From a plasmid: 64,000 nucleotides of DNA. The DNA lies in the sequence record NZ_CP072388.1. One strand, written 5' to 3'. The notes beneath the pieces were generated by a model. That model saw nothing but the letters and a program-made list of their open reading frames with translations. It was not told the origin of the DNA and did not search any database. Positions within the stretch are counted from its first letter, which is position 1, and every line of letters begins with the position of its first letter. The translations under genes and the position numbers were made by a program. Below, piece after piece: positions 5,010 to 35,395 of the stretch.

Positions 5010-5020
5010 AGGAGAGTGCG

Positions 5021-6939: not shown

Positions 6940-6961
6940 CCGCCCTGCGGGCACGGCAAAC

Positions 6962-7033: not shown

Positions 7034-7085
7034 CGATCGTGTTGGTGGATGCGGGCGGGCGAAGGTCCCGCCCCGACGAGACGGG

Positions 7086-8069: not shown

Positions 8070-8080
8070 CCGGCGCCTCG

Positions 8081-9963: not shown

Positions 9964-9986
9964 GACCACCCGAGGACCACCCCACC

Positions 9987-10868: not shown

Positions 10869-10888
10869 CCACCCACCAGGAGCCGACG

Positions 10889-11644: not shown

Positions 11645-11656
11645 ACGTCGATCTAT
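11641..11656. promoter_or_regulatory. third copy of palindrome ATAGA-N6-TCTAT
   Basis: ATAGACGTCGATCTAT overlaps the stop codon of the 10889 regulator and lies upstream of the 11666 ORF. Confidence 0.3.
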
Positions 11657-11665
11657 CATGATGGG

Positions 11666-12079
11666 GTGGCGAGCCGACTCCTCGACCGGGACGTGAGCGC
11701 GACCGTCGCCGTCGCGGCGTCGGCCGAGCAGACGTGGCGTGCGCTCCTGGTCGTCCTGGGGATCGACGCCGAGGTACCGGGTGTGCCGGCGGCCTACGGG
11801 GCCATGGCCGGGCGTGTGCGCGACGCTGTGCCGGGGGACGGCTTGGTGGTGCGTGGCCGTCTGGGCGCGCGCACGTACGAGTTCTCCGCCCATCTCGTCG
11901 CCCGCGGTGTGTGGTGCGACCTGACGGTGGACGCAGCCCCGGACGACCTTGTCGGGGCAGTAGAGGGCGGGCGCTGGCGGCACCACCTGGCCCGGCGTCG
12001 GGTCCGGCAGCTCGTGCGAGATCTGGTGACCGATGTCGCGCGCACGGCGGGTAGCGGCGCCGGTCCGGTCTCGCGCTGA
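11666..12079 (+). CDS. hypothetical protein (possible SRPBCC-fold)
   Basis: GTG-start ORF of 137 aa. Family assignment is weak. Confidence 0.35.
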   Translation: MASRLLDRDVSATVAVAASAEQTWRALLVVLGIDAEVPGVPAAYGAMAGRVRDAVPGDGLVVRGRLGARTYEFSAHLVARGVWCDLTVDAAPDDLVGAVEGGRWRHHLARRRVRQLVRDLVTDVARTAGSGAGPVSR

Positions 12080-12093
12080 GAGGCTGCCCGGCT

Positions 12094-13005
12094 TCAGGGG
12101 GTGATCTCGCGTACGAGGTCGTGCACGCGCGCGGTGATGTCGTCGACGATGCGCACGACGTCCTGAAGTGGGCGACCGGAAGGGTCCTCGACGGTCCAGT
12201 CGACGTAGCGCCGGCCAGGGAAGACCGGGCAGGCGTCGCCGCAGCCCATGGTGACCACGACGCCTGAGGCGCGCACGACCTCGTCGGTGAGGGGGCGGGG
12301 AAACTCGGTCAGCGCGTCGAGGCCGCGTCGCGCGAGCTCGGTGCGCACGACGGGGTCGATCGAGGCGGCGGGCACCGACCCGGCAGTGCGCACGCGCACC
12401 TGGTCGCCGGCGATCGAGCGCAGCACCGCGGCGGCGATCTGGGACCTGCCGGCGTTGCGCACGCACACGAACAGCACGTCCTGGCGCGGCGCGAGGCCGT
12501 GCCGGTCGAGGGTGAGGGCGGCGAGCCGGTCGGCGGCGAAGCGCGCGGTGAGCGCGGGCAGGTGGCGGCGCACGGTGGCGCGGGCGGCGAGCAGGTCGTA
12601 GCTGTCGGTGACGAACCGGGCGACGGTCTCGGGCGCGAGGACGTCGGTGTAGGTGGCGCTCAGGTCGGCGGTGATCCGTCGCAGGAGGCGGTCGTGGTCC
12701 CCGGGTGGGACGTGCGCGGCGCCGGACCGGTCCGGCGCGCCGATCGCGGCGCCGCCGAATCGGGCCAGGGCGTCCGGGGTCGGGCGGTATCGCGCGTCGG
12801 GGCCGTGTCCGACGCGGACCAGGACACCGACGTCGCTCATGGCCTGCAGGTGCGCGCCGACGGCGTCGAGGGCGCCACCGGGTCCGGCCAGGTCTCGGGC
12901 GCGGGGCTGTCCACTCGGGTCGGTGATGATCAGGGCCAGGAGCCGCAACCTGTCGGGATCGGCCATCGTGGCGGCCTGGGCGGCGCGCAGGTCGTCCGGG
13001 CTCAT
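12094..13005 (-). CDS. arsC: fusion: degenerate ArsR-like HTH + linker domain + LMW-PTP-family arsenate reductase
   Basis: C-terminal CX5R P-loop VLFVCVRNAGRSQIAA and a distal Cys (VVTMGCGDACP) typical of thioredoxin-coupled ArsC. The N-terminal HTH-like region lacks the CVC motif. Confidence 0.75.
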   Translation of the reverse strand: MSPDDLRAAQAATMADPDRLRLLALIITDPSGQPRARDLAGPGGALDAVGAHLQAMSDVGVLVRVGHGPDARYRPTPDALARFGGAAIGAPDRSGAAHVPPGDHDRLLRRITADLSATYTDVLAPETVARFVTDSYDLLAARATVRRHLPALTARFAADRLAALTLDRHGLAPRQDVLFVCVRNAGRSQIAAAVLRSIAGDQVRVRTAGSVPAASIDPVVRTELARRGLDALTEFPRPLTDEVVRASGVVVTMGCGDACPVFPGRRYVDWTVEDPSGRPLQDVVRIVDDITARVHDLVREITP

Positions 13006-13024
13006 CGGGGCACGCCCCGCCCGG

Positions 13025-13381
13025 TCAGCGCAGCAGGTCCGCGATCGCGTGCAGACGGACGGGGACGATGGAGTACCAGACCTCGCGTCCCACGGGGTCG
13101 CGGGTGACGATGCCCGCCTCGGTCATCACCTTCAGGTGGTGGGACACGGTGGGCTGGCGCAGGCCGAGCGCGCGGGTCAGGTCCGCGACGCGGGCACGGG
13201 CATCGGCGCTGTGGTGGATCAGGCTCAGCAGCTGTAGGCGGGTGGGGTCGGAGACGACCCGCAGCAGCGTGGCGGTGTCCTCGGCCTGCTCGCGGCTCAG
13301 CGTCGTGCGCAGGGCGGGCCCCGGCGCGCGTTCGGCCCGCCCCTGCAGGGGCGGGGACGACTCGCTTGCCGGGGCGCTCAC
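13025..13381 (-). CDS. arsR: ArsR-family regulator (cysteine-free)
   Basis: LQLLSLI...QPTVSHHLKVM HTH. No Cys anywhere in the protein. Confidence 0.8.
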   Translation of the reverse strand: MSAPASESSPPLQGRAERAPGPALRTTLSREQAEDTATLLRVVSDPTRLQLLSLIHHSADARARVADLTRALGLRQPTVSHHLKVMTEAGIVTRDPVGREVWYSIVPVRLHAIADLLR

Positions 13382-13403
13382 CCATCGAGGATAGCCGTCC
13401 GCG

Positions 13404-13844
13404 TCAGGCGGCCGGGGTGGGCGCGACCGGCGTGACGCCGAGCTCGCCCAGCAGGGTCAAGACACGGCCGCGGATCTCGTCGCGAATGGGGCGCACAGAC
13501 TCGATGCCCTGCCCTGCCGGGTCGGCGAGCTCCCAGTCCTCGTAGCGCTTGCCGGGGAAGATCGGGCAGGCGTCGCCGCAGCCCATGGTGATGACGACGT
13601 CGGACGCCTGGACGGCCTCGGTGGTGAGGACCTTGGGCTGCTCGGCGCGGATGTCGATGCCCTCTTCGAGCATGGCCTCGACGGCGACGGGGTTGATCTG
13701 GTCCGCCGGGGCCGAGCCGGCGGAGCGGACCTCGACGGCGCCGCCGGACAGTGCGCGAAGGTAGCCGGCGGCCATCTGGGATCGGCCGGCGTTGTGGACG
13801 CAGACGAACAGGGCTGACGGCTTCGCGGTGGTGGTGTCGGTCAT
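13404..13844 (-). CDS. arsC: arsenate reductase, LMW-PTP family (thioredoxin-coupled)
   Basis: AGGAGAA RBS. P-loop ALFVCVHNAGRSQMAAG. Downstream Cys pair ITMGCGDACP. Confidence 0.85.
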   Translation of the reverse strand: MTDTTTAKPSALFVCVHNAGRSQMAAGYLRALSGGAVEVRSAGSAPADQINPVAVEAMLEEGIDIRAEQPKVLTTEAVQASDVVITMGCGDACPIFPGKRYEDWELADPAGQGIESVRPIRDEIRGRVLTLLGELGVTPVAPTPAA

Positions 13845-13870
13845 GGCGTTCTCCTGGTTGCTGGTGGATC

Positions 13871-14881
13871 TCAGGCGATGGTCAGGGTCAGGTCGGGCAG
13901 CAGGTCGGCGAGCAGGCCCCGTACTCGCTCGTCGAGGTCGTCGCGGATCGCGGCGACCCCTGCGGGGGAGGCCAGGGCGGGGTCGCCGACGAGCCAGTCC
14001 TCGTACCTCTTGCCGGGCAGCACGGGGCAGACGTCGCCGCAGCCCATGGTGATGACGACATCGGCGGCGCGGACGGCGTCGTCGGTCAGGGGCTTGGGGA
14101 AGGCTTCGTCGTCGTCGGTGCCGAGCTCGGTCAGGGCCTCGAGCACCCCGTCGTGGATGTCGGCGGCAGGCGTGGACCCGGCGGAGCGGACCACGACGCG
14201 GTTCCCGGCGTAGTGCTGCAGCAGGGCGGCGGCGAGCTGGGAGCGTCCGGCGTTGGCGACGCAGACGAACAGCACTTGCGGTCGGGCGTCGCCGGAGCGG
14301 GTGAGGTCGGCCAGTCTCTGGCGGGCGAACCGTGCGGTGAGCGGCACCAGGTGGGCCGAGACCTTCGCCGAGCGGGCCAGGTCGGTGTAGGACTCGCGGA
14401 CCACGCGTTGCACGACGTCGAACCGGACGTCGGGAAACGCTCCGGCGAGGTCCTCGGCGAGGTGGTCGAGCGCCGGGTCGACGTCGTCCAGCCCCGCCAG
14501 GACGGCCGCACCGTGTGCAGAGCCCAGCGCGGCCGGGGCGAACGAGTCGAGCAGCGTCGTCACCGCGGCCTTGTAACCGCCGGTGATGCGGTACCAGACC
14601 CAGGTGCCGCGCCGTTCGGAGGTCAGCACGCCGACGTCGCGCAGCACCTTGAGGTGGTGCGACACGGTGGGCTGTGACACGTCGGTGAGGGCGGCGAGGT
14701 CGCACACGCACGCCTCCCCGGCGGGTGCGGTCGCGATGAAGGACAGCATCCGTAGCCGCAGCGGCTCGGCGAGGGCCTTGAGCGTGGTGGCGACGGCGCC
14801 GGCGACCTCGGTGCCGATCGCGTGGGACTCGATCTGCGGGGCGCAGTCCGGGTCCGTGACAGTCAAGGGTGTGGTGGTCAT
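13871..14881 (-). CDS. tri-domain fusion: ArsR (EACVCDL metalloid site) + linker domain + LMW-PTP arsenate reductase
   Basis: N-terminal LRLRMLSFIA...EACVCDL...QPTVSHHLKVL. C-terminal VLFVCVANAGRSQLAA...ITMGCGDVCP. ATG overlaps the acr3 stop (ATGA). Confidence 0.8.
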   Translation of the reverse strand: MTTTPLTVTDPDCAPQIESHAIGTEVAGAVATTLKALAEPLRLRMLSFIATAPAGEACVCDLAALTDVSQPTVSHHLKVLRDVGVLTSERRGTWVWYRITGGYKAAVTTLLDSFAPAALGSAHGAAVLAGLDDVDPALDHLAEDLAGAFPDVRFDVVQRVVRESYTDLARSAKVSAHLVPLTARFARQRLADLTRSGDARPQVLFVCVANAGRSQLAAALLQHYAGNRVVVRSAGSTPAADIHDGVLEALTELGTDDDEAFPKPLTDDAVRAADVVITMGCGDVCPVLPGKRYEDWLVGDPALASPAGVAAIRDDLDERVRGLLADLLPDLTLTIA

Positions 14882-15984
14882 GACCTCACCTCTTCCAGCT
14901 CGGGTGTTCGAGTCGTGGGGGCGTAGGGGTCGACGGCGAACCAGCGGCGCGCGAGCCACAGGGAGACGTAGACGAGGCCGACGAGGACGGGGACCTCGAT
15001 GAGCGGGCCGACGACGCCGGCCAGGGCCTGACCTGACGTGGCGCCGAACGTGCCGATGGCGACGGCGATCGCGAGCTCGAAGTTGTTGCCCGCAGCGGTG
15101 AAGGCGAGCGTCGTGGAGCGTGCGTAACCGAGCGCGAGCATCTTGCCGACGACGATGCCGATGCCCCACATGGCGGCGAAGTACACCAGCAGCGGCAGCG
15201 CGATGCGGGCCACGTCGAGCGGGTGGGAGGCGACGGCCTCGCCCTGCAGGGCGAAGAGCAGCACGATCGTGAACAGCAGTCCGTACAGCGCCCACGGCCC
15301 GACCTTCGGCAGGAACCGGTCCTCGTACCAGGTGCGGCCCTTGGCGCGTTCGCCGACCAGGCGGGAGGCGAACCCGGCGGCCAGCGGGACACCGAGGAAG
15401 ACGAGGACGTTGAGCGCGATCTGCCCGACCGAGACGTCGAGGCCCTGGGTGTCCAGACCGAGCCATCCGGGCAGCACGGTGAGGTAGAAGTAGCCGAGCA
15501 GCGAGAACGCGACGACCTGGAAGGCGGAGTTGATCGCGACCAGCACCGTGGCCGCCTCCCGATCCCCGCACGCGAGGTCGTTCCAGATCACGACCATCGC
15601 GATGCAGCGGGCCAGGCCGACGATGATCAGCCCTGTGCGGTACTCGGGCAGGTCGGGCAGGAAGGCCCAGGCAAGGGCGAACATCAGCGCGGGACCGACC
15701 AGCCAGTTCAGTACCAGCGAGGAGACCAGGAGCCTCTTGTCGCCGGTGACCGCGCCGACGCGGTCGTAGCGGACCTTGGCCAGGACCGGGTACATCATGA
15801 CGAGCAGGCCGAGCGCGATCGGGACCGAGATCCCGCCGACCTCCATCGCCGTGAGCACCTCGGACAGGGCGGGGACGAACCGGCCCAGGACGAGACCGGC
15901 GACCATCGCGAGGCCGATCCACAGCGGCAGCCACCGGTCCAGCGTGGACAGGCGCCCGCGCGTGGCGGTCGTGGGGTCGCTCAC
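14878..15984 (-). CDS. acr3: ACR3-family arsenite efflux permease
   Basis: ten predicted TM helices (hydropathy estimate by eye). Conserved ACR3 regions LNWLVGPALMFALAW and IVGLARCIAMVVIWNDLACGD (catalytic Cys region). GTG start overlaps the trxA stop (GTGA). Confidence 0.9.
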   Translation of the reverse strand: MSDPTTATRGRLSTLDRWLPLWIGLAMVAGLVLGRFVPALSEVLTAMEVGGISVPIALGLLVMMYPVLAKVRYDRVGAVTGDKRLLVSSLVLNWLVGPALMFALAWAFLPDLPEYRTGLIIVGLARCIAMVVIWNDLACGDREAATVLVAINSAFQVVAFSLLGYFYLTVLPGWLGLDTQGLDVSVGQIALNVLVFLGVPLAAGFASRLVGERAKGRTWYEDRFLPKVGPWALYGLLFTIVLLFALQGEAVASHPLDVARIALPLLVYFAAMWGIGIVVGKMLALGYARSTTLAFTAAGNNFELAIAVAIGTFGATSGQALAGVVGPLIEVPVLVGLVYVSLWLARRWFAVDPYAPTTRTPELEEVRS

Positions 15985-16304
15985 GCGAGGACCTCCTCGA
16001 TCTCGGCGACCAGCGCCTGCTTCGGGCGTGCGCCGACGACGGACTTCACCAGCTGGCCGTCGGAGTAGAAGTTCAGCGTCGGGATCGACACGACGCCCGC
16101 CGCCGCCACGGTCTTCGGGTTGGCGTCGGCGTCGAGCTTGGCGATCGTGAGCCTGCCCTCGTACTCCTGCGCGAGCTCGGCCAGGATCGGGGCGACCTGG
16201 CGGCACGGGCCGCACCACGTGGCCCAGATATCCACCAGCACAGGCACTTCGGAGGCCAGGACCACCTCGTCGAAGGTGTCGTCGGTGACGGTCACGGTGC
16301 TCAT
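15981..16304 (-). CDS. trxA: thioredoxin
   Basis: WCGPC active site, 108 aa, GGAGGAG RBS. ATG overlaps the trxB stop (ATGA). Confidence 0.9.
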
Positions 16305-17323
16305 CGGATCTCCTCCAGCGCCAGGGGCAGCTCGTCGGGGTTCGGGGTCTCGGGCGTGCCGGCCAGGTTCGCAAGGCCGGCGGCGTCGGCGAGCTCGGTG
16401 AGGTAGGCCTGGGCGTCCAGGGCGGCGGAGGCGCCGGTCCCGGCGGCCGTGATGGCCTGCCGGTAGGTGTGGTCGACCACGTCGCCGGCGGCGAACACGC
16501 CCGACAGGTTGGTGCGGGTGGAGCGGCCCTGGACCAGGATGTAACCGTCGTCGTCGAGGTCGACCTGGCCCTTGACCAGGTCGGTGCGCGGCTCGTGGCC
16601 GACGGCGACGAACAGGCCCGTCGCGGGCAGCTCGCGCTCGGCGCCGGTCACGGTGTCGCGCAGCGTCAGGCCCTCGACCTTGTTCTCTCCGCCGATCGCG
16701 GCGACCTCGCTGTTCCAGGCGAACTCGATCTTCGGGTCGTTCAGGGCGCGGTCGGCCATGATCTTCGACGCACGCAGCTCCCCACGGCGGTGCACGACGG
16801 TGACCTTGGACGCGAACCGGGTGAGGAACGTGGCCTCCTCCATCGCGGAGTCCCCGCCGCCGACGACCGCGATGTGCTGGTCGCGGAAGAAGAACCCGTC
16901 GCAGGTGCCGCACCAGGACACCCCGCGCCCGGACAGCCGCTCCTCCTCGGGCAGGCCGAGCTTGCGGTAGGCGGACCCGGTGGTCAGGATCACCGCCCGG
17001 GCCCGGTAGGTGTCGCCGCTGCCGGTGTGGAGCGTCTTGACCGGGCGGTCCAGCTCGAGGGACGTCACGTCGTCCCACACGATGCGCGCCCCGAACTTCT
17101 CGGCCTGGGCCCGCATGGCGTCCATGAGCTCAGGGCCTTGGATGCCGTCCGCGAACCCGGGGAAGTTCTCCACCTCGGTCGTGGTCATCAGCGCGCCACC
17201 GGCGGTGACCGAGCCGGCGACCACCACCGGCGCCAGGCCGGCACGGGCGGCGTAGATCGCCGCGGTGTACCCGGCGGGGCCCGACCCCACGATCACGATC
17301 TCCTGAACCTCTTGCATCGACAT
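16301..17323 (-). CDS. trxB: thioredoxin-disulfide reductase
   Basis: [18 protein letters not shown] motif, redox CGTCDG (CxxC), NADPH motif [10 protein letters not shown]. Confidence 0.9.
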
Positions 17324-17398
17324 GCCTCTATGTTGACACCGGTCGATGCAGCGCGCAAGGTGGATATCGATGAACGTCGATGCAACAGGAAGTGGATC

Positions 17399-17656
17399 AT
17401 GAACTGTTACGAGCACGCGCAGGAAGGCCGCGAGACGGTCGCCGTGGGGGTCTGCCCGCGCTGTGGCGCCGCGGTCTGCGCCGAGCACGCGGGGGAGTGT
17501 CGGGTCGAGATCGTTCGGAGCAACGGTGTCGGGTCGCCGACCCTCGGGCAGCACCGGGTCGTGTGCTGCGACCGGTGCCGCGCCTCTGGAGCTTGTGCCG
17601 GCGTGTGGCGGGCGGGCGTCGACGGCGCGCGTGAGCCGGCTGGTCGCGGCGTGTAG
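17399..17656 (+). CDS. small Cys-rich zinc-ribbon protein (DUF2180-like), paralog of 2423
   Basis: MNCYEH...[12 protein letters not shown]...CCDRCR. Divergent from trxB. The intergenic region carries GTCGATGCA twice. Confidence 0.5.
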
Positions 17657-17705
17657 CGCTCAGTTCACCGTGCTCGGAAGAAGCCCTGGTGGGTCGCCGG
17701 GGCGG

Positions 17706-18926
17706 TCATGCAGCGTTTGGGCGGTGCACCCCGGTCGACAGGGCGATGAGTGCCGCGAGGGCGGCGGACGCGGCAAGGACCGCGAACGTCGCCGGGTAGG
17801 AGCCGGTGGCGCCGGTGAACGCGGCGGCCGCCCAGGGCGCCAGTGCCATCGCGAGCGTGGTGGGGGCGTTGAGGATCCCGAACAAGACGCCGTACGAGCC
17901 CGATCCCCACCGGTCGCTGATCGCGGTGGACTGCAGCAGCGTGAATGCGCCGCGCGCCACGCCGAGGGCGACGGCGGCGGCGATGAGCGCGGTGGCCGGT
18001 CCGTCGAGCAGCCCGACGATGGCGATCGTCAGGGCCGAGGTGCCGAGGAGCGCGCTGGCGCGGACGGGTGGTGTGGTGCGCGCGGCGAGCGATCCGTACG
18101 CGATGCGCCCCAGGAGCTGACCCGCGCCGGACAGGCCGAGCGCCCACGCGGCCGCAGCCGCTGTCAGGCCGCGCCAGGTCAGCATCGGCACCAGATGGAT
18201 GGTGGCGGCGAACATCGCGAACGCGCCCAGCGCGGTGGCGCAGGTCAGGGCGAGGAACGCTCGAGAGCGCGCGATCGTTCGCCACCCGCCTCCGCCGTGT
18301 GCGTGCTGGGCGGTCTCGAGGGGCGGCCAGGGTGCGCGCAGGCCGATTGCGTGCGCGGGGATGGTCGTCAGGGCGAGCAGGACGGCCAGGAAGAGGTAGG
18401 TCTGGCGCCATCCCGCGTGCTGGACCAGGGCGGCGGTCAGGGGCGCGAAGATCGTGCTCGCGAGCCCTGCCACCAGGGTCAGCACGAGCAGGGCCCGGGT
18501 CCGCGCGGGCCCGTACCAGCGGGTGATCGCGGTGAACGCCGGGGCGTAGAGCACCATCGACTGGGCGACGCCGACCATGACCCAGGCGGCGAGGAACCAA
18601 CCCAGGGACGGGGCAAGCGCGACGGCGATCACGGCGACGCTCGCCAGGACGGACCCAGTGGTCATCACCGCCCGGGGACCGTGGTGATCGATGCGTCTGC
18701 CCACGAGCACGCCCGCGCCGGCTGCGACGACCAGGGCCGCGGAAAACGCGGCCGTCGCGCTGGCTGGCGACCAGCCGGTGTCGGCCGTGATGGCCGGCAA
18801 GGCGACCGGGAAGGAGTAGTACAGGACGCCCCACCCCACGACCTGGGTCAGGCACAAGGCCGCGAGGGTGCCGCGTGGGCCGGTGCGCAGACCGGCGTCG
18901 CCTCGGCCCCTCTGCGTGGTGGTCAC
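17706..18926 (-). CDS. MFS transporter (candidate ArsK/ArsJ-like efflux)
   Basis: Twelve TM segments. Start and stop overlap the upstream flavin-monooxygenase gene. Confidence 0.8.
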   Translation of the reverse strand: MTTTQRGRGDAGLRTGPRGTLAALCLTQVVGWGVLYYSFPVALPAITADTGWSPASATAAFSAALVVAAGAGVLVGRRIDHHGPRAVMTTGSVLASVAVIAVALAPSLGWFLAAWVMVGVAQSMVLYAPAFTAITRWYGPARTRALLVLTLVAGLASTIFAPLTAALVQHAGWRQTYLFLAVLLALTTIPAHAIGLRAPWPPLETAQHAHGGGGWRTIARSRAFLALTCATALGAFAMFAATIHLVPMLTWRGLTAAAAAWALGLSGAGQLLGRIAYGSLAARTTPPVRASALLGTSALTIAIVGLLDGPATALIAAAVALGVARGAFTLLQSTAISDRWGSGSYGVLFGILNAPTTLAMALAPWAAAAFTGATGSYPATFAVLAASAALAALIALSTGVHRPNAA

Positions 18927-20005
18927 GACCGAGTCAGCGTACGCACGGTGCGTGCGTGCGCGCTGACCGCCGCGGCGACGTGGGCGGCGTCGCGGTGCAC
19001 GCCGCGCAGCGTGTTCGAGGCGAACGAGCGCTGCAGCTCCAGCCCCACGAACCCCAGTCCCGGCCGGGCGAGCGAGATCCCGCCGCGCTGGCGCGGCATA
19101 CCGCGCTCGTCCAGCAAGGCCAGGTCACCGAGGTAGTCCAGCGCGGGCCGGTACCCGGTGGCCAGCACGAGGGCGTTGACGCGTTCGCGTGCCCCGTCTG
19201 CCCACACCACCCCGTCCTGGTCGACCGCGCTGAACATCGCGCGCGAGTCCACGGTGCCGTTCGCCAGCGCCTCGCGATAGCTGCCGGCGTCCAGGACCAG
19301 CGGCCCACGCACCACGCGTCGAAGCACCGCCGGGGGGAAGCGGTCGAAGCCGGTGACGCGGAACCAGAAGTGCACGTCCCGCCCCAGCGGGCGCTGGGTC
19401 GCGAACACGACGGGCTGGCGCGTCGCGAGGGTCACGTCGCTCACTTGCGCGAGCTCGTGCGCGATCTGCACCCCCGAGTTCCCGCCACCGACGACCACGA
19501 CGCGCTCCCCGGCGAACGACGAGGGATCGCAGTACTGGGCCGCGTGCACCACCCGGCCCGTGAAGTGCTCCAGCCCAGCAACGCTCGGACGCACAGGGTT
19601 GGCGAACGACCCCGTCGCCGCGATCACCCCGCTCGCGTCGAGCTCGACCCCGTCGCCCGTGCGCACCACGAACCCGGTCCCCGCCGGCTCGACCCCCACC
19701 ACCCGGGTTCCCGTCCGCACCTCGACCCCGAGGTGGTCGGCGTACCGGTGCAGGTGCTCGACCACCTCGTCCCGCGCCGGGTACCGGTCCGGGTCCCCCC
19801 CGAAGCCGAACCCGGGGAAGCCGCTGTACCGGGCCGGGGAGAACAGCCGCAGGCTGTCGTAGTACGACGGCCACGACCCCACCGGTCGGTCGCCCGCCTC
19901 CAGCACGAGCGGCTCGAGACCTCGCTCGCGCACGGCCCTGGCCGCGGCCAGGCCCGACTGGCCGGCACCGCTGATGATCACGGGGAGCGTCGTTGACGTC
20001 GTCAC
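18923..20005 (-). CDS. flavin-containing monooxygenase-like NAD(P)/FAD-binding protein (ArsO/ArsV-like)
   Basis: GTG start. IISGAGQSGLAAARAV (FAD) and a second dinucleotide site VVVVGGGNSGVQIAHEL. Sits in an ars context, divergent from arsR. Confidence 0.75.
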   Translation of the reverse strand: MTTSTTLPVIISGAGQSGLAAARAVRERGLEPLVLEAGDRPVGSWPSYYDSLRLFSPARYSGFPGFGFGGDPDRYPARDEVVEHLHRYADHLGVEVRTGTRVVGVEPAGTGFVVRTGDGVELDASGVIAATGSFANPVRPSVAGLEHFTGRVVHAAQYCDPSSFAGERVVVVGGGNSGVQIAHELAQVSDVTLATRQPVVFATQRPLGRDVHFWFRVTGFDRFPPAVLRRVVRGPLVLDAGSYREALANGTVDSRAMFSAVDQDGVVWADGARERVNALVLATGYRPALDYLGDLALLDERGMPRQRGGISLARPGLGFVGLELQRSFASNTLRGVHRDAAHVAAAVSAHARTVRTLTRS

Positions 20006-20069
20006 ATCCGTAACGTATCGATGATTCGCAATATGTCAATACGACGATGGATCGAGATACGCTCCAGGG

Positions 20070-20399
20070 ATGAGCACGCCGACAAGCCGCCCAGCGGTCG
20101 TGGAAGCTGCGCCGCTCGCGCTGGCCGAGGCGACGCACGACTTTCTCAGCGCGTTGGCGAGCCCCACACGCCAGCGTGTCCTGCTGCTGTTCGCGCGCGG
20201 CGGCGAGCTCGCGGTCGGGGAGGTGGCCGAACGTGCAGGCATCAGCCAGCCCACTGCATCCCAGCACCTGCAGATCCTGCGCCGTGGTGGCATTGTGACC
20301 TCGCGCCGCCAAGGCCGGGTCGTGCTCTACCGCGCCGACCGCGACGGCGTGGCGCGTGCGCTGAGCGACCTGCAGGCCTATCTCCAAGCGTGCTGCTGA
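20070..20399 (+). CDS. arsR: ArsR-family regulator with C-terminal Cys-Cys pair
   Basis: HTH ...QPTASQHLQIL. The protein ends ...LQACC, and has no CVC motif. Confidence 0.8.
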   Translation: MSTPTSRPAVVEAAPLALAEATHDFLSALASPTRQRVLLLFARGGELAVGEVAERAGISQPTASQHLQILRRGGIVTSRRQGRVVLYRADRDGVARALSDLQAYLQACC

Positions 20400-20426
20400 G
20401 CACCTGGAGGTCGTCGCGCCGCTCGC

Positions 20427-22955
20427 TCAGCCGTCTGGGTCCGAGCTCGCACGTTCCGCCCTGATGGCTGAGGGCGGCCCCGTAGGCGAGAGCTGGGCGA
20501 CCTCCTGCCTACGGGTTCGCAGGTGCCTGAGACTCTCTTCCAGGGCCGCAACCTCTCCGAGCCAGACTCGCTCGCGCGCCTCTCGCAGCCGGGCTTCGGC
20601 GTTCACGGTCATCTCGTCGAGGCGGCCGGCCTGTGCGGGGTCGACCTTGAGGAAGCGGCATCGGGTGCAGGCGTGCTCGTGCACGCACGGGGTGCCGTAC
20701 GGGCGGCGGCAGTCGCCGAGGGCGACCTTGCGCAGCAGGAAGTGTTGCTCGAACTCGTTCCACTCGTCGGGGGTGGCCGTGCGCAGCTCTTCCTCGGGGC
20801 GGGTGTGCCGGCGTCGCTCGACGAAGGCGTGGTGGGCCTGGATGACGTGCTCGGGGAAGACGGCTGTGTAGCCGCGGGTCGTGTCGAGGTTCAGATGCCC
20901 CAGGAGCGTGGAGACGATGTGCAGCGGGAGGCCTGCGCCGACGAGGTCGGTGGCGAACAGGCGTCTGAAGTCGTGCGGAGTGAACCGTACGGGGGTCTCG
21001 CCGTCGTGGATCCCTGCTCGGTCGGCGACCTGGTGCAGGAGCGTGCGCACGTACTGGGCGGAGAGCACGCTCTGCCGGGAGCCGATCCTGCGGGCGAACA
21101 GGTGGGGGAGCGGGTCGCTGAACACCTTCTCGTTCGGGTCGTACCGGACCGACAGGGGGACGCTCGGGCTGCCGCCGCGTGCGCGGCGTTGGACCTCGAC
21201 AAGGACCTTGACCAGGTCGGGGCTCATCGGGACGAGGCGTTCGGCGTCGGTCTTCGACGGGACGATGTGCAGCAGCGGCACGATGGTGTTGGTGGTCGGC
21301 GCGACGTAGTGCCGCAGGGACAGCTGCGTGAGCTCGAGGAGCTCTTCGATCCGCACTCCCGTCTCGCGCAACGACTCGACCACGGCCCATGCCCAGAAGC
21401 TGTCGGCCTCCAGGCGAGAGATGCACACCAGGCCGCGTTGCGCCGGTGGGATGCGGGCGTGCTCGGCGATCTCGACGATCCGGGCCCAGACCTGGTTGCG
21501 CGCAGCTCGGTTCGAGTGGAGGGGCGGGTCGTGGCGTTCGTAGGTGATGCCATCGACGGTGAACCGCTCGCCGTGACCGGCCGTGACGGCTGCGGCCAGC
21601 AGCCGGCTCCCGTCCTCTCGTAGCGCGTGGGCGGCGGCGGTGAACCGTGGAAGGTGCGGGGTGAGTGTCCGGGTACGTGCTTGCATGCGCGAGCGTCGTT
21701 GACGGTTGGCCTTCGACGCGCTCCGGGACTCGTGTCGTGGGACGGGGCAGGGCGCGACCCAGTAGGCCCAGCGTTCGGGCTCCTCGTGGGACCACTCGGC
21801 CAGGTCGCGGTAGAGCGCGCGTACCGAGAAGAACACCGACGCCACGTCGCGACGCGGGTGTCCGTCAAGAGTCGTGGCGAGCCGCTCACGCCACCGAACA
21901 GCGACCGCCGGAGCCAGACGCAAGTCGGCCTGATCCGGATTCAGGGCGAGGACCTGTCCCCAGAAGAGGCGCACCAGCCGATACGACAGGCCTTCCAACG
22001 ACCCGTAGTCCAGGCTCGCGCGCAGCTCGCCGAGGTAGTCGACCAGCAGGTCCAGAACCCCTGAGTGCGGGAGGCCGTACCGGGCGACGAGGGTCTGGAC
22101 GGAGTGCTGGCGAGAGTTCCCGGCTGCCGCCCAGGCGGCCCGTAGCGTCGGCGGTTCACCGGCGAGGGGCCCCAGCGCGACCAGGAGCTCCCAGGCCAGG
22201 TGCTCCTTGTTGTGCCGCTGGGAGGTACGCACGACGTCGGCGTAGGCGAGCAGATCGTCGCCCGTGAGCCGTCCCAGGCGCTTGCCGGTGCGGATCAGGA
22301 CTCGCGCCAGGCAGGTCTCGGCGTTGCGGCGCGCGAGCTCGGGCGCGTGCTCATAGGCGGACAGTGCCCGTAGCCGGACCATGGCGTCGGGTTCGGCGGT
22401 GTCGAGGAACCGGGCTGACGGGGCGCGCCGGTAGTGCGCGGCTCGCAGCAGCCAGGAGTAGGAGGGCCGCACCGTGCGCGCCTCGATGAGCGACATCACG
22501 GCGATCGAGACGAGCTTCCTGTGCACGCCGGTCTGGAGAGCGACGGCATCGATGCCGCCGTTCGGTGCGGCGTCCAAGCCGCTGGAGATCCACCGTTCCT
22601 CCCACGTCGATCCCGGGTGCTGGGCGAGCCAGGTCAGCACCCTGCGTACGGCACGGTCGCGGGCACGCTGAGCTTTCGGGAGCGGCTGTGAACGGCCGGA
22701 CAGGTAGGACTCGACCCAGGTGCAGGTTGCCTCCACATCGAGGGTCTGCACGTGCGCGAGCTCGTGGTCGGGCTCTCGCAGTGGCGGCAGTAGGGCGGTG
22801 TCGTAGGCGGGCCGACCGCGCGTCCTGCCGTCCTTGGAGTGCATCGGGTCCGGTGCAACGGCCGCACGAAGGACCCGGGTGCGCCGTCTCGTCTCGGCTG
22901 CCTGTGCGCGCGAGGGCAACCTCGGGTCGAGCGCCACCTCGCCGGTGCCGCTCAC
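20427..22955 (-). CDS. large tyrosine recombinase (Tn554 TnpB-like)
   Basis: C-terminal catalytic region R...HDFRRLFAT...LLGHLNLDTTRGYT (R-H-R-Y). 842 aa. GTG start overlaps the upstream recombinase stop (GTGA). Confidence 0.85.
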   Translation of the reverse strand: MSGTGEVALDPRLPSRAQAAETRRRTRVLRAAVAPDPMHSKDGRTRGRPAYDTALLPPLREPDHELAHVQTLDVEATCTWVESYLSGRSQPLPKAQRARDRAVRRVLTWLAQHPGSTWEERWISSGLDAAPNGGIDAVALQTGVHRKLVSIAVMSLIEARTVRPSYSWLLRAAHYRRAPSARFLDTAEPDAMVRLRALSAYEHAPELARRNAETCLARVLIRTGKRLGRLTGDDLLAYADVVRTSQRHNKEHLAWELLVALGPLAGEPPTLRAAWAAAGNSRQHSVQTLVARYGLPHSGVLDLLVDYLGELRASLDYGSLEGLSYRLVRLFWGQVLALNPDQADLRLAPAVAVRWRERLATTLDGHPRRDVASVFFSVRALYRDLAEWSHEEPERWAYWVAPCPVPRHESRSASKANRQRRSRMQARTRTLTPHLPRFTAAAHALREDGSRLLAAAVTAGHGERFTVDGITYERHDPPLHSNRAARNQVWARIVEIAEHARIPPAQRGLVCISRLEADSFWAWAVVESLRETGVRIEELLELTQLSLRHYVAPTTNTIVPLLHIVPSKTDAERLVPMSPDLVKVLVEVQRRARGGSPSVPLSVRYDPNEKVFSDPLPHLFARRIGSRQSVLSAQYVRTLLHQVADRAGIHDGETPVRFTPHDFRRLFATDLVGAGLPLHIVSTLLGHLNLDTTRGYTAVFPEHVIQAHHAFVERRRHTRPEEELRTATPDEWNEFEQHFLLRKVALGDCRRPYGTPCVHEHACTRCRFLKVDPAQAGRLDEMTVNAEARLREARERVWLGEVAALEESLRHLRTRRQEVAQLSPTGPPSAIRAERASSDPDG

Positions 22956-24151
22956 GGTGTCCAGCCGAGCAGCTCACGCACGGCCGCCGCGTCGTAGTCG
23001 GGCTCGACAGCAGCAGGTGGCGGCTTGGGGCGGGAGAAGTGCTCGAGCACCTTGGCCAACACGTCCTCCATCCGGGGCTGGGTGTAAATCGTCGTGGTGA
23101 AGATGTTCACGTGGCGAAGGACCGTCTGGACGTCGACCAAGGTGAATGCCGGGTCGGCCAGCAGGCGCTCGGCGGCCGTGTGCCGCAGGTCGTGCAGCGT
23201 CCAGTTCGATCCGATCCCGCGTTGCGCGCGCGAGAACATGGCCCGAGCCGCGTGGTAGGTCAGTGGTCTGAGTGCCGCCCCGGTGCGCGTCCACCAGACC
23301 CGATCGCCGGGTGCCGCCGGCTGACCTTCGCGCATGTACAGCGCCAGCCACACGAACGCGTCCGGGCTCGCCGGGACGCGTTCTGGCGCGCGGCTTCCCT
23401 TGGTGACGACGGTGATCGTGTGCTCCCCGAAGTCGTAATCTCCGTGCCGCAGCTCCAGCAGCTCGGTTGCCCGCACGCCGCTGGAGAGCCAGAACGACAG
23501 CAGCGCTCGGTCACGGTGACACGTCAGCGCGTCGAAGATCTGGTCGACGTACTCGTCAGGGATGCCGCGCCAGCCGATCCTGGGTACCCGCTGGCGGTAC
23601 GGCGCCCGGGCATGCCGGCGAAATTCACGCATCGGGTCCTGGTGGGCGTTGACGCGGCCCCTGCCGGAACGCTGGGCGGGGACAGGGTTCACCAGCGGAC
23701 CCAGATCCGCGGCGAGCGCAAAGTCGTAGAACCCGGCCAGCACCGAAAGTTGGTGGTTGATCGTGCGCGGAGCAAAGCCTGTCGCGGGACTCGCCCTGCC
23801 GGTAACCATGTTGATCTCGGCGCCACGCTCTCCGCGTCGTAACGCGGTCGCCGTCGGTGCCGCCCGTAAGTACTCCACGAAGGCGCGCACGTCGACACGC
23901 TCAGCACGCTCCCACGCCACGAGCCGCTGGTGGAGGAACCGGAACCACCGGAGCAAGTCGTAGGCGTAGCTGCGGACCGTCGCGGGACTGCAGTCCGACG
24001 CAGACAGATCACGCAGGTACAAGGAGGCTGCTGCGTGCTCGAGATCGGGGAACACGACCCGGAACGGCAGGCCGGAGTCGCACTCCACGACCCGGCCCAC
24101 GGCGCCCGTCACGCGCGACAGCGTCCCATGACGCACACCGCACGTCACCAC
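22952..24151 (-). CDS. tyrosine recombinase (Tn554 TnpA-like / XerD-like)
   Basis: N-terminal SAM-like core-binding region. Catalytic HDLRHTAAERLL...LRHVNIFTTTIYT. Confidence 0.85.
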   Translation of the reverse strand: MVTCGVRHGTLSRVTGAVGRVVECDSGLPFRVVFPDLEHAAASLYLRDLSASDCSPATVRSYAYDLLRWFRFLHQRLVAWERAERVDVRAFVEYLRAAPTATALRRGERGAEINMVTGRASPATGFAPRTINHQLSVLAGFYDFALAADLGPLVNPVPAQRSGRGRVNAHQDPMREFRRHARAPYRQRVPRIGWRGIPDEYVDQIFDALTCHRDRALLSFWLSSGVRATELLELRHGDYDFGEHTITVVTKGSRAPERVPASPDAFVWLALYMREGQPAAPGDRVWWTRTGAALRPLTYHAARAMFSRAQRGIGSNWTLHDLRHTAAERLLADPAFTLVDVQTVLRHVNIFTTTIYTQPRMEDVLAKVLEHFSRPKPPPAAVEPDYDAAAVRELLGWTP

Positions 24152-24184
24152 TCGATCTAGGAAGTTCAGTCAACGTGCCGGTGC

Positions 24185-25063
24185 GTGCTCGTGCGCGACG
24201 ACGCGGGCGTGAGCCTGTGGTCGCGGCGTGGCACCGACCTGACGGCGACGTTCCCGGAGATCGCGGCCGCGGCCGCGGAGCAGGTCGCGCCGGGGGCCGT
24301 GCTCGACGGTGAGCTCGTGGTCTGGACCGGGGGCCGGCTCGACTTCGAGGTCTTGCAGGAGCGGATGGGCCGCGGCGCGCGCAGCGCGGCCGCGCACGCC
24401 CGGCGCCGGCCCGCGTCGTTCGCGCTGTTCGACGTCCTCGCCGTCGACGGGCGCGACGTGCGCGGGCGGCCGCTGCGCGAGCGGCGCGCGCTGCTCGAGG
24501 AGGCCGCGACGTCGTGGCGCCCGCCGCTGAACCTGTCCCCGGTGACCGGCGACGTCGACGAGGCGCGCGAGTGGTTCGAGACGTACACGGTGGCCGGTGT
24601 CGAAGGCTTGGTCGTCAAGGGCGCCGGCGAGGCGTACCGGGGCGGGGAGCGGGCCTGGTTGAAGGTCAAGCACCGGGCCACGCTCGACGTCGTGTGCGCC
24701 GCGGTGATCGGCACCATGACCCAGCCGCAACAGGTCGTAGCCGGCCTGCCGATCGACGGCGAGCTGCGCATCGTCGGGCGCACCGGCCCGCTCACGCCGA
24801 CGGCGCGCCGCGCTCTCGCCGTCCACCTGCGACCGCCAGCAGGGGAGCACCCCTGGCCGGCGCAGGTGGCACCGGGTGCGTTCGGCCGGTTCAACGCCGA
24901 CCGCTCCGAACCGGTCACGCTCACGCGGGTCGAGCCGCTCGTCGTCGAGGTCAGCGCCGACGCCGCCTGGTCAGGCCGGTCTTTCCGCCACGCCCTACGT
25001 CTGCTCCGCGCCCGCCCGGACGCCGAGGTCTCCGCCGTGGAACCGCCACGTCGGGGCCAGTGA
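24185..25063 (+). pseudogene. ATP-dependent DNA ligase (LigD-like ligase domain), 5'-truncated
   Basis: Motifs GVEGLVVKGAGEAYRGGERAWLKVK (ligase motifs V/VI). The KxDG adenylation motif is absent. An in-frame stop lies at 24158-24160, immediately upstream. Confidence 0.6.
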
Positions 25064-25085
25064 TCGACCCTATGGGCTTGCGGCT

Positions 25086-25118
25086 GGGCCCCGCCCGAGC
25101 GTGCTCGGGCGGGGCCCC
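25086..25118. terminator. strong hairpin (15-bp perfect stem, 3-nt loop)
   Basis: GGGCCCCGCCCGAGC-gtg-GCTCGGGCGGGGCCC, 23 nt after the ligase stop. Confidence 0.5.
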
Positions 25119-26469: not shown

Positions 26470-26763
26470 TCAGCGCCGCTCGACGGCGTCGGCCCACAGC
26501 CAGGCCCAGCCCTCGCGTCCGGCCGGGGACACGTACCTGATGTGGACCTGGCGACCGGCCCATGCGATGGCCTCGCCGTCGACGTGCGCCTCGCCGCTCT
26601 GGCGCTGGGTAATCCATGCCCGCACGGGGATGCCCTCCGGCGGCCGCACGATCGGCACGCCGCGGCGCGCGAGCTCGGGCGCCTCCTCGGCGTGGTCGCG
26701 CAGCGGCACCGTCTCGATGCCGGACGGCCACCCGCCCACCGGTGGACGTCGACGAGATCCCAC
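26470..26763 (-). CDS. hypothetical protein divergent from the ImuA-like gene
   Basis: 97-aa ORF whose start lies 13 nt from the LexA box. No recognisable family. Confidence 0.3.
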   Translation of the reverse strand: MGSRRRPPVGGWPSGIETVPLRDHAEEAPELARRGVPIVRPPEGIPVRAWITQRQSGEAHVDGEAIAWAGRQVHIRYVSPAGREGWAWLWADAVERR

Positions 26764-26773
26764 CCCCCAACGT

Positions 26774-26789
26774 TAGAACATATGTTCGA
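26774..26789. promoter_or_regulatory. LexA (Cheo-type SOS) box
   Basis: TAGAACATATGTTCGA contains GAAC-N4-GTTC, matching the Gram-positive/actinobacterial LexA consensus CGAACRNRYGTTCG. Located in a divergent promoter. Confidence 0.5.
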
Positions 26790-26810
26790 GTCAGGCCGCA
26801 TACTGGGAGG

Positions 26811-27518
26811 GTGAGTGCGACCGCCGCGGACGCGTTGGAGGTGGCTCGCGCGGCCTTGCACCGTGCCGAGCTGCGCACCGGCGTGCGCACCCTGCGCCCG
26901 GCCGTCGTCGACGTCGACGACACGCCCCGGCCCCTTGGCGCGCTGTTCGACGAGGGGCGCCTGCCCGCCGGGGCGGCGAGCGTCGTGGCCGGGTCGACGA
27001 GCCTGCTCCTGGCCCTGCTCGCGATGTCGCAGGGGCCGGCGGACTGGGTCGCGTTCGTCGGCATGCCCGACCTCGGGGTGCTCGCCGCGGCCGACGCCGG
27101 CGTCGACCTTGACCGGGTCGCGCTCGTGCCGCGCGTGGGGCACGACGGCGCGACCGTGCTCGCCGCGCTGCTCGACGGCTTCGCATACGTCGCGGTCGGG
27201 CCGGGCGTCGCGCTGACAGCGGCCGAGCGCCGGCGCCTGCTCGCCCGCGCCCGAGAGCGCGGCGCGGGGCTGGTGACCACGCGCCCGTGGGAGCAGGCCG
27301 CCGTGCGGCTCGAGGTGGCCGCGCACCGCTGGTCCGGCGTCGACCGGGGCGGGCGGTACCTGCGCCGCTGCGAGCTCGACGTCGAACGCACCACCCGCGG
27401 CGCCACCGACCGGTGGACCCTGACCCTGCCCACACCCGCCGGCCCGCTCGTCGACGCGATCGCGGGGGAGGCCCGACCCGCCCGCGCGCAGCGCGGCGCG
27501 CTGCGCCTCGTCAGCTAG
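26811..27518 (+). CDS. ImuA/SulA-like RecA-fold protein (SOS-regulated)
   Basis: GSTSLLLALLAMSQGPADWVAFVGMPDLGVLAAADAGVDLDRVALVP resembles ImuA'/SulA family cores. A LexA box is immediately upstream. GTG start abuts GGGAGG. Confidence 0.55.
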   Translation: MSATAADALEVARAALHRAELRTGVRTLRPAVVDVDDTPRPLGALFDEGRLPAGAASVVAGSTSLLLALLAMSQGPADWVAFVGMPDLGVLAAADAGVDLDRVALVPRVGHDGATVLAALLDGFAYVAVGPGVALTAAERRRLLARARERGAGLVTTRPWEQAAVRLEVAAHRWSGVDRGGRYLRRCELDVERTTRGATDRWTLTLPTPAGPLVDAIAGEARPARAQRGALRLVS

Positions 27519-30397: not shown

Positions 30398-31408
30398 ATG
30401 GGTGAGTACACCAAGCCATGGCTCTCGCTCGACGACCAGCTAGAGAGGCTTGCGAGCCGTGGGGTCGCCGTCGACCCGCGTGATCGCGCTTCGGCTTGCT
30501 TGAGAGCTGTCGGCTACTACCGGCTCACGGGTTACCTGTACCCATTCCGCTGTTCGGAACAGGTCAAGGACGCGGACGGCAAGGTCCGGACGCGCGTCCT
30601 CAGCGGCTACCGCCCTGACACGTCCATCGCACATATCGCGCGAGTGATCGACTTCGATCGACAGTTGCGCATGCTTGTCATGGACGGCGTCGAGCGCATC
30701 GAAGTCGCCCTGCGCATGCAGGCCGGGTACGTCCTCGGCCGCCGGTCTCCGTTCGCGCATCTCAACCCCGCCACCTTCCTGACCTCGTTCGTCGAGCATC
30801 AGGTGGACGGCGAGACTGGGTGGAAGACGCAGCCGAGCAAGCACGCGCAGTGGTTACAGCGTGTCGCCCAGCGCCGCGCCAGTTCCGACGAGACGTTCGT
30901 CGCCCACTTCCGTGACGAGTACGACGGACAAATGCCGATTTGGGCGCTCACCGAGATTCTTGAGCTTGGTCAGCTCGCAACCCTGTACCGCGGCCTAAAC
31001 GAGGACGACGCTCAGGAGATCGCCGAGGCCTTCGCTGTCCCGACCAAGAAACTGATGGCGAGCTGGCTAGCGAGCCTGAACTATGTACGCAACGTGGCTG
31101 CGCATCACGCGCGCCTCTTCAACCGCAAGCTCCAGAACGCGCCGGCGCGACCGCGATTGGGGCTTGTGCCGCTGCTCGACCATCTGCGCGACGAGGACAC
31201 GCCCAAGGGCGCCTTCGGGGTGTACAACGCGCTGGCCGTGATCGCCTACATGCTGCGATCCGTTGACCGCAGTTCGGACTGGTGTCACCGGCTCGTCGAA
31301 CTGTGTGGCACCTTCCCCTCGTCGCCGGACCTCACGCTTGGGGCGCTGGGCGGCCCGCGAGAATGGACGTCGCTCAACCTGTGGGAACAGACTGGCGAAC
31401 TGCAATGA
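30398..31408 (+). CDS. Abi_2-family (AbiD/AbiF-like) abortive infection protein
   Basis: N-terminal KPWLSLDDQLERLASRGV and GYYRLTGYLYPF motifs characteristic of Abi_2. Locally lower GC. Confidence 0.7.
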   Translation: MGEYTKPWLSLDDQLERLASRGVAVDPRDRASACLRAVGYYRLTGYLYPFRCSEQVKDADGKVRTRVLSGYRPDTSIAHIARVIDFDRQLRMLVMDGVERIEVALRMQAGYVLGRRSPFAHLNPATFLTSFVEHQVDGETGWKTQPSKHAQWLQRVAQRRASSDETFVAHFRDEYDGQMPIWALTEILELGQLATLYRGLNEDDAQEIAEAFAVPTKKLMASWLASLNYVRNVAAHHARLFNRKLQNAPARPRLGLVPLLDHLRDEDTPKGAFGVYNALAVIAYMLRSVDRSSDWCHRLVELCGTFPSSPDLTLGALGGPREWTSLNLWEQTGELQ

Positions 31409-34984: not shown

Positions 34985-35395
34985 TTACTGCTCGGCCGGG
35001 TGGTGCGCGTCGCGGAACAACCCCGGCGGCGGGACCTCGACGGGCCAGGCGTCCGGGAGCTGACGATCCTGCACGTCGCTCAGGCGCCAGAACGGGCCGT
35101 CGGTGGCGGTGATCTCGCGCATCTCGGGGCCGAGGTAGTCGCGGAAGAACACGCTCATGCCGGTCATGCCCTCACCGCGCAGGAACTCCCAGGACCGCCA
35201 CAGCGCCTCCAGGCGCGCGACGACCTCGGTGTACTCCCACCAGCGCGGGTCCCACCGGAAGGACTTGGGGTTGCGCTTGTAGTGCGGGAGCAGCCACTCG
35301 CGCACCCACACGTCGACGTTCGGGTAGAACGTCGCGACCGGCTCGGACTCGGGCACGTCGTCCAGGTCGATCTCGACCTCGTCGAACTCGCTCAT
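34985..35395 (-). CDS. DUF4913-like protein (conjugation-associated)
   Basis: MSEFDEVEIDLDD...FYPNVDVWVREWLLPHY. ATG overlaps the coupling-protein stop. Confidence 0.55.
   Translation of the reverse strand: MSEFDEVEIDLDDVPESEPVATFYPNVDVWVREWLLPHYKRNPKSFRWDPRWWEYTEVVARLEALWRSWEFLRGEGMTGMSVFFRDYLGPEMREITATDGPFWRLSDVQDRQLPDAWPVEVPPPGLFRDAHHPAEQ

Follow-up and report, generated by a model that had tools for sequence, protein, structure and literature searches.

Transposons of the Tn554 family (Tn554, Tn558, Tn559 and Tn6674, from Staphylococcus and Enterococcus) have a small and then a large tyrosine recombinase gene at one end of the element, insert into a protein-coding gene in a site- and orientation-specific way without duplicating the target, end in short and imperfect inverted repeats, and carry their cargo downstream of the recombinases. 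Elements of this type are the least understood among the tyrosine-recombinase transposons, and a 2023 review lists Staphylococcus and Enterococcus as their only reported hosts. A class related to Tn554 was described in silico in Actinobacteria by Van Houdt et al. (2012; Mob DNA 3:6, PMC3414803). It lacks TnpC and combines a long (611–828 aa, Famint41) with a normal-size (Famint36) tyrosine recombinase reading in the same direction; the TnpC-less subgroup, found on plasmids and chromosomes, includes pRHL2, pNOCA01, SCP1 and others. The class was defined from the proteins; its ends and target are not given, and the word "ligase" is absent from the paper (Van Houdt et al., 2012). Here we analyze a stretch of 64,000 nucleotides of the sequence record NZ_CP072388.1 (the window), in which a recombinase pair of this kind abuts an interrupted gene for an ATP-dependent DNA ligase. 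We consider it probable (roughly 0.8) that positions 20427-24178 are one end, the one with the recombinases, of an actinobacterial integrative element that is related to Tn554, lacks TnpC and belongs to a clade inserting nearly always at one single position of ligase genes. The features at the center of this reading are the following.

20427-22955, minus strand: large tyrosine recombinase, TnpB-like, 842 aa (Pfam Phage_integrase at aa 516-702)
22952-24151, minus strand: small tyrosine recombinase, TnpA-like, maximal open reading frame (ORF) of 399 aa (Pfam SAM_1 and Phage_integrase)
24160-24178, no strand assigned: right (recombinase-proximal) element end, GGAAGTTCAGTCAACGTGC, with the core GTTCAGTCAAC at 24164-24174, then GTGC, then CGG at 24179
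24179-25063, plus strand: remnant of an ATP-dependent DNA ligase (LigC-like), codons 42 to stop (PF01068 and alignment with intact homologues)

Relation to Tn554 and other recombinase systems

As a reference for the Tn554 family we have used a staphylococcal plasmid (locus L082) with a unit made of tnpA (361 aa), tnpB (637 aa) and tnpC (DUF6262), adjoined by a JAB/radC fragment. The large recombinase of the window matched its TnpB with 25% identity over 293 aa (BLASTP, E 6e-14), in an alignment that covers the C-terminal, post-catalytic Cys/His motif that both proteins share (GDCRRPYGTPCVHEHACTRCRF in the window protein). The alignment of the small one with TnpA was full-length (E 1e-9) and preserved the catalytic R, H-x-x-R, H and Y, while the cross pairs (small against TnpB, large against TnpA) were weak. 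The original prediction, made from the letters and ORFs of the window, had called the pair Tn554-like, and these matches agree with it. There are, however, clear differences. The Tn554 family has tnpC (DUF6262, ca. 125 aa) downstream of tnpB, where the window has a convergent gene for an ArsR-family regulator (arsR), and searching with the staphylococcal TnpC (tblastn) retrieved no homologue in the window or in those related loci that were included in this search. The large recombinase of the window is ca. 200 aa longer at the N-terminus, the target of Tn554 is att554 within radC instead of the DNA coding for ligase motif I, and the hosts of the window clade are Actinobacteria. Being homologous to TnpA and TnpB and without TnpC, the pair therefore belongs to the TnpC-less actinobacterial class. 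The lengths of its proteins (842 aa, with an N-terminal extension of more than 400 aa, and 386 or 399 aa), their common orientation and the lack of TnpC are all as described by Van Houdt et al. (2012), and pNOCA01, one of the examples given there, carries a homologue of the large recombinase that is 39% identical.

Other systems were also compared. SEs and GInts live in other hosts and depend on two additional core genes (tfp/srap or ginC/ginD), which are missing here. Gene-specific islands driven by tyrosine integrases (such as those directed to dusA or to tRNA genes) also use a highly conserved gene segment as attachment site and compensate the function of the target. However, they have a single integrase and a duplicated end that restores the target gene, whereas in the window clade the target gene is really broken in two, and any compensation is due to a second, full-length ligase gene, as present in many members. 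We have ruled out a recombinase-in-trio (RIT) element, since there are only two recombinase genes, flanked by arsR and the ligase, and also a XerC/XerD dimer resolvase, as the scores were 56–90 bits against NCBIfam equivalog cut-offs of ca. 330.

The recombinase pair and the split ligase gene

The two recombinase genes follow each other in the order small then large and overlap by four nucleotides, GTGA (in the context ccGTGAgc). For the small recombinase, a start at 24112, giving 386 aa, is suggested by its relatives, which begin 13 codons further in (MTGAVG...). Its catalytic residues R227, H320, R323, H347 and Y356 were kept in the full-length alignment with TnpA of the Tn554 family. Among 15 homologues of the large recombinase the residues R548, K568, H661, R664, H687 and Y696 were invariant, and the same was true for C749, C757, H759, H761, C763 and C766. 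The protein is laid out as an all-helical N-terminal region of ca. 450–500 aa, the catalytic domain, the C-terminal Cys/His motif and a final helix. Its AlphaFold model (of moderate quality, pLDDT 70) retrieved with Foldseek only generic Xer, Cre and Tn1549 integrases from the PDB, matching the core-binding and catalytic domains, and nothing in that search matched the N-terminal ca. 450 residues. In a set of 1.84 billion proteins clustered at 50% identity, the family of the large recombinase accounts for 513 cluster representatives at E<=1e-30. Both genes are under purifying selection, with ratios of non-synonymous to synonymous divergence (dN/dS) against relatives of 0.10–0.13 for the small and 0.14–0.21 for the large recombinase. 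No other integrase was detected in the window, and we looked for a sigma-70-like promoter at the element end and found none. The average G+C content of the window is ca. 71%, and for both the ligase and the RNase J encoded in it there is an identical NCBI protein under the name Cellulosimicrobium.

On the other side of the element end, the ORF at 24185-25063 (plus strand, 292 codons) matched PF01068 from position 37 to 204 of 204. Positions 1-36 of the domain are missing, and therefore the remnant is devoid of the KxDG motif; its score against the LigC-like ligase model NF006078 is below the cut-off. Compared with the full-length relatives (325–340 aa), 41 N-terminal codons are missing (ca. 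12%), the last of which would read ...EPKWDGF. Homology to the intact ligases begins at 24179 with an Arg codon (CGG), 6 nt before the GTG start at 24185, and an in-frame TAG is found upstream of the ORF at 24158-24160. The right end at 24160-24178 was the top minus-strand match of the weight matrix of element ends in the window. The dN/dS of the ligase remnant was 0.36–0.48, i.e., relaxed. The ligase of the window is a pseudogene created by the insertion, next to intact recombinases. Just past the ligase stop, at 25085-25115, there is a perfect G+C-rich hairpin (GGCCCCGCCCGAGC GTGC TCGGGCGGGGCC) that is probably the ligase terminator. Nucleotide similarity to the related loci L001 (from C. 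funkei) and L084 (a metagenomic contig) stops a few bases before this hairpin.

Much of what the original prediction had proposed for this junction holds. The 399-aa and 842-aa recombinases sharing GTGA were recovered by the ORF and Pfam checks, the separation of 27 nt between the large recombinase and arsR is real (it is the stop of the convergent arsR that lies there), the lack of KxDG and the stop upstream of the ligase ORF are reflected in the PF01068 match from position 37 and the TAG at 24158-24160, and the element/target junction placed at 24152-24184 could be fixed exactly at 24178/24179. Other points required correction. The GTG-started ligase ORF exists, but ligase homology starts 6 nt upstream of it. 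The motifs EGLVVK and WLKVK are present, but they had been labeled V and VI and we take them to be motifs IV and V in the usual nomenclature. Finally, the 5' half of the ligase gene had been thought to be either invaded or replaced, and a replacement is not what is seen: the insertion lies precisely between codons 41 and 42.

A single target position in ligase genes across the clade

We have compared 80 loci obtained by a scan with the large-recombinase alignment, taking one genome per species. Those with a large recombinase at least 50% identical to that of the window were considered a close clade, with 41 evaluable loci. In 37 of these 41 the proximal end adjoins a ligase gene that is interrupted at codon 42 (including diverged ligases recognized by translation), a recurrence that puts the arrangement far beyond chance. 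The proximal motif, GTTGACTGAAC in the sense of the recombinases, precedes the start of the small recombinase by 6–25 nt in almost every locus where this gene is complete. An Arthrobacter subgroup has GTTAACTGCAC instead, and in a few loci (L002 and L007, for example) the gap is longer. Wherever a ligase was detected, the end consists of GTTCAGTCAAC plus four nucleotides and is followed by Arg codon 42, which begins 5 nt past the motif, so that the junction in the orientation of the ligase reads ...GAAGAGTTCAGTCAAC(N4) followed by CGN. The four nucleotides (ATGC, TAGC, TAGT or GTGC) do not match the ligase flanks. A transfer of a 6-bp core in the style of Tn554 would be invisible here, because the donor and recipient flanks would be nearly identical.

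The distal end is an 11-mer, GTTCAGTGAAG, downstream of the recombinases (CTTCACTGAAC in the orientation of the ligase). Out of 21 occurrences 20, in 18 loci, directly abut the end of a ligase 5' fragment, K(W/F/Y/H)DG(F/Y..), and the junction in ligase orientation is ...AAGTGGGACGGCT(A/T)C followed by CTTCACTGAAC(N1-4)GTCAA.... Beyond the terminal 18–23 nt the distal ends share no sequence. The two ends have TTGAC in common in direct orientation and TGAAC in inverted orientation, and once joined they would form GAGTTCAGT-N12-ACTGAACTC. In all the 18 loci with two ends the distal one is located on the cargo side, 1.3–8 kb past the large recombinase, and the complete elements measure 5.4–13 kb. 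Strains with a complete one include Georgenia daeguensis JCM 17459 and Promicromonospora iranensis. Insertion has taken place in a single orientation across the clade, between the Phe/Tyr and Arg codons of E-P-K-W-D-G-F/Y-R, and since the two ligase pieces are contiguous codons, no duplication or loss of the target is visible. The target ligases are only 29–76% identical to one another; however, they have a common motif-I DNA pattern, with the insertion point between GA(A/G)CCGAAGTGGGA(C/T)GGNT(T/A)C and CGN.

By homology to Tn554, both recombinases would be needed and would act together on the short terminal sites, of which the proximal one is GTTCAGTCAAC plus 4 nt and the distal one CTTCACTGAAC..GTCAA. 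The joined ends, with a circular junction ...GTTCAGTCAACGTGC/CTTCACTGAAC..., may be recombined with the ligase motif-I DNA. The insertion itself, as the related loci show, occurs in one orientation between the Phe/Tyr and Arg codons of the LigC-type motif that holds the catalytic lysine and splits the ligase into a 41-codon 5' piece and a 3' piece, with the cargo placed between the large recombinase and the distal end. Excision would restore the ligase as GGCTTC/CGG.

In a more distant clade (ca. 40% identity; L044, L045, L053, L056 and L077) the end motif, ca. 100 nt ahead of the small recombinase, is GTTGACCGCAC. Adjoining this motif is the 5' part of an ORF that has an HTH-like region at its N-terminus and is cut after "...FSFRLSYSGKAVHR"; judged by eye, it looks like an istA transposase of the IS21 type. 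This clade seems to have a protein-coding target of its own. We found no report of ligase genes as a target of these or of any tyrosine-recombinase elements in the literature searched (full text, with incomplete coverage), and the specificity for ligases over the whole clade, the defined ends and the replacement ligases carried as cargo appear to be new details.

Cargo and replacement ligases

The genes carried as cargo, between the large recombinase and the distal end, differ from one element to another and include sigma factors, ABC transporters and dehydrogenases. Arsenic resistance (ars) genes are cargo in Arthrobacter sp. ISL-95 (L080). The conjugative plasmid pA of Paenarthrobacter ureafaciens (NZ_CP094490, L083) has a copper-resistance cluster as element cargo; there the interrupted ligase belongs to a DNA-damage module (SRAP, DUF2188, a Y-family polymerase and umuD), and the large recombinase is annotated in two pieces.

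Many elements contain a full-length ligase gene (L003, L004, L010, L017-L020, L023-L029, L036 and L039), and this is the case in most of the Mycolicibacterium loci. These cargo ligases are 47–79% identical to the interrupted ligase of their own locus and have the identical motif-I DNA pattern. As this DNA is retained, we infer that the cargo ligase makes up for the disrupted gene and may become a target in its turn, and the new landing site would lead to nested arrays. Two distal ends in tandem were found in L008 and L013, which suggests nested or repeated insertion. On balance we lean towards a clade, unreported in the literature searched, that homes to the DNA of the LigC-type catalytic-lysine motif on chromosomes, plasmids and conjugative elements of Actinobacteria and whose replacement ligase, where carried, both compensates the damage and recreates the landing site. 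More speculatively, precise excision could reconstitute the ligase and work as a reversible switch.

Probable mobility of the clade

The order interrupted ligase, small recombinase, large recombinase is common to the window, L001 and L084. Nucleotide identity of these two loci to the window was ca. 73–80% in the ligase remnant and mostly ca. 83–91% in the recombinases. In a neighbor-joining tree, the interrupted ligases of the three loci fell into three sub-lineages, each with intact members. The remnant of the window was 75% identical (amino acids) to the intact ligases P0002 and P0003, that of L001 80% to P0014 and that of L084 81% to P0008, while the three interrupted ligases were only 67–73% identical to each other. 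Each of them is closer to intact relatives than to the other interrupted ones, which favors separate insertions of closely related elements.

Several points weigh against this reading or restrict it. The synonymous divergence (dS) of the ligase remnants (0.50–0.84) is similar to that of the recombinases (0.41–0.88) in all three pairs, as would likewise be expected if the insertions were old and had been passed on along with the host replicon. The ligase tree carries no support values, and pseudogene decay lengthens its branches. No ligase was found at the proximal end in four loci of the close clade (L006, L041, L042 and L080). The ars genes of the window differ from those of L001 by a dS of 0.13–0.26, below the 0.45–0.53 of the recombinases. 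Finally, with only one end seen in the window the completeness, size and cargo of this copy are not fixed.

The similar dS values in the three comparisons, the purifying selection on the recombinases and their being the only integrases detectable in the window would suit an old, immobile relic, i.e., a single ancient insertion inherited with the host conjugative element, whose recombinases were kept for multimer resolution or for integration of the host element. We regard this as unlikely. Against it are the interrupted ligases in different lineages, each with closer intact relatives, and the spread of the clade over chromosomes and plasmids of many genera with differing cargo, and the tandem distal ends of L008 and L013 suggest repeated insertion.

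The single end of the window copy

The 5' fragment of the ligase was absent from the 64-kb window, both by tblastn with nine ligase N-termini and by searching the degenerate DNA pattern for KWDG(F/Y). The distal end was absent as well, whether searched as the 11-mer with two mismatches, as a gapped pattern, with the weight matrix or by blastn using 15 distal ends as queries. Between positions 1 and 25200 the only direct and inverted repeats were due to paralogous ars genes, and no tRNA genes were found in the window, which excludes a tRNA attachment site. In the absence of the distal end and of the 5' ligase piece from the window, the copy appears to be either truncated on the cargo side or rearranged, with its distal end outside the window. 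Finding AAGTGGGAYGGNTWY directly followed by CTTCACTGAAC elsewhere on the replicon would mean that the copy is complete and not truncated.

A complete copy of this kind, in which an inversion or a replicon fusion has carried the distal end and the 5' ligase piece out of the window (as SRAP-DUF2188-ligase 5' piece beyond 64000), has in its favor that the conjugative backbone continues past the right border of the window and that DUF2188 and SRAP, which precede the intact ligases, are not found within it. But we judge it unlikely: the distal end was on the cargo side, 1.3–8 kb past the large recombinase, in every one of the 18 loci with two ends, and here the cargo side reaches chromosomal DNA after 16 kb without any end.

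The original prediction had located the other end near 4500-4560, between the stop of the RNase J gene and arsR, which would make a complete element of ca. 4520-24178 with the whole arsenic and phosphate-transport (ars/pst) island as cargo. Foreign DNA does begin at 4519/4520, and ars genes lie on the cargo side, as ars-related genes do next to the recombinases in L001 and L084. The coordinate is thus a real boundary by loss of synteny, but not a demonstrated element end: the weight matrix gave background values there, and the flank 4498-4563 had no distal motif, no terminal similarity and no ligase 5' fragment, in line with the result for the entire window. Besides, the left neighbor is RNase J instead of a ligase 5' piece, and 19.7 kb exceeds every complete element seen (5.4–13 kb). 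An element with these limits is quite improbable. The stretch 4520-4535 (GAGCGAACTCC), weakly similar to the end sequences and located at the synteny break, was dropped since its weight-matrix score was that of the background.

An intact ligase merely frameshifted by a sequencing or assembly error, a refutation that the original prediction had itself envisaged, has nothing but the truncated ORF to recommend it and is refuted, since upstream of 24179 there are a recombinase gene and a conserved element end, the identical junction is found in independent assemblies (L001, L084 and 30+ others), and no DNA coding for KWDG exists anywhere in the window.

Chromosomal flank, arsenic island and conjugative backbone

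The remaining features of the window are the following.

565-4519, plus strand: chromosomal flank, with the genes for the SulP/STAS permease and for RNase J at 565-4497 (syntenic in Promicromonospora, L085, and in Isoptericola, L086)
4520-20069, no strand assigned: arsenic/phosphate-transport island in cargo position (Pfam; membership in the element not demonstrated)
20070-20399, plus strand: ArsR-family regulator, first gene on the cargo side (Pfam HTH_20/HTH_5, NCBIfam metalloregulator)
25064-64000, no strand assigned: conjugative element or plasmid backbone that owns the ligase gene (Pfam)
26616-27518: MT3502_N protein (Pfam)
30398-31408: Abi_2, within a stretch of lower G+C (64–67%) at 30–34 kb
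35392-37143: T4 coupling protein (Pfam)
49195-50994: prim-pol/HTH protein (Pfam)

The SulP-RNase J segment had 82–83% nucleotide identity to L085 and L086 up to 4495-4519 and no match beyond (blastn), and nothing further in the window matched the DNA downstream of RNase J in these two genomes. That DNA differed in every genome compared. The best non-identical RNase J matches were 85% identical, and none was labeled Cellulosimicrobium. A composite island begins therewith at 4519/4520; it measures at least 59 kb and includes the conjugative backbone, in the order ars/pst genes, arsR, the two recombinases, the ligase remnant and the backbone, which continues past 64000. Apart from the genes listed, the backbone holds DUF6668, VanY, ParA, DUF4192, a ParB-like protein and DUF6573.

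The original prediction had also proposed to look for the intact ligase and the empty site in relatives, and both are found in Cellulosimicrobium. The intact ligases of C. cellulans (L087) and C. funkei (L089) have SRAP and DUF2188 upstream, and in L089 the ligase is followed by an MT3502_N region syntenic with the right flank of the window. The window contains neither DUF2188 nor SRAP, and therefore the backbone on the upstream side of the insertion has been lost or moved, as has the distal end. The ligase gene seems to be hosted by an integrated conjugative element located beside the chromosomal SulP-RNase J genes.

The island contains arsR, flavin oxidoreductases, a GNAT protein, a pst-like ABC transporter, ArsC-type phosphatases, ACR3/SBF, a thioredoxin-reductase-like gene and MFS. 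The pst-like phosphate/arsenate transporter (binding protein, two permeases and ATPase) occupies 6969-11644 together with a Trans_reg_C regulator. The ars genes probably arrived as cargo. Ars-related genes are found beside the recombinases in two relatives of different ligase lineages: L001 is collinear with the window, with 91–95% nucleotide identity in the ars genes from 14122 on, and in L084 a thioredoxin-reductase-like gene, homologous to 17244-17339 of the window, starts 27 nt after the stop of the large recombinase. Against this, the block of arsR, FMO and MFS is missing at the equivalent position of L084. The dS against L001 was only 0.13–0.26 in FMO, MFS and the thioredoxin-reductase-like gene, but 0.45–0.53 in the recombinases, 0.62 in the ligase remnant and 0.70 in arsR. 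As the ars genes are below the recombinases, they have a partly separate, mosaic history. The arsR gene (20070-20399) groups by its dS with the recombinase/ligase segment and not with the other ars genes; there is a breakpoint near 20100 in the divergence from L001, and the large recombinase gene shows little conservation at its 3' end. The cargo status of the ars genes, like the left end at 4500-4560, is unproven because the other end of the element was not found in the window. For the same reason, i.e., that the element is seen with one end, we advise against annotating a bounded transposon for the ars island.

Implications

The defined ends together with a protein-coding target offer a direct assay for the whole class, namely the recombination of the joined ends with a ligase motif-I site of ca. 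25 bp. Insertions of this kind account for many annotations of a "truncated ATP-dependent DNA ligase" in Actinobacteria, and the elements illustrate one way for metal-resistance genes (ars, cop) to get onto conjugative plasmids and integrative and conjugative elements.

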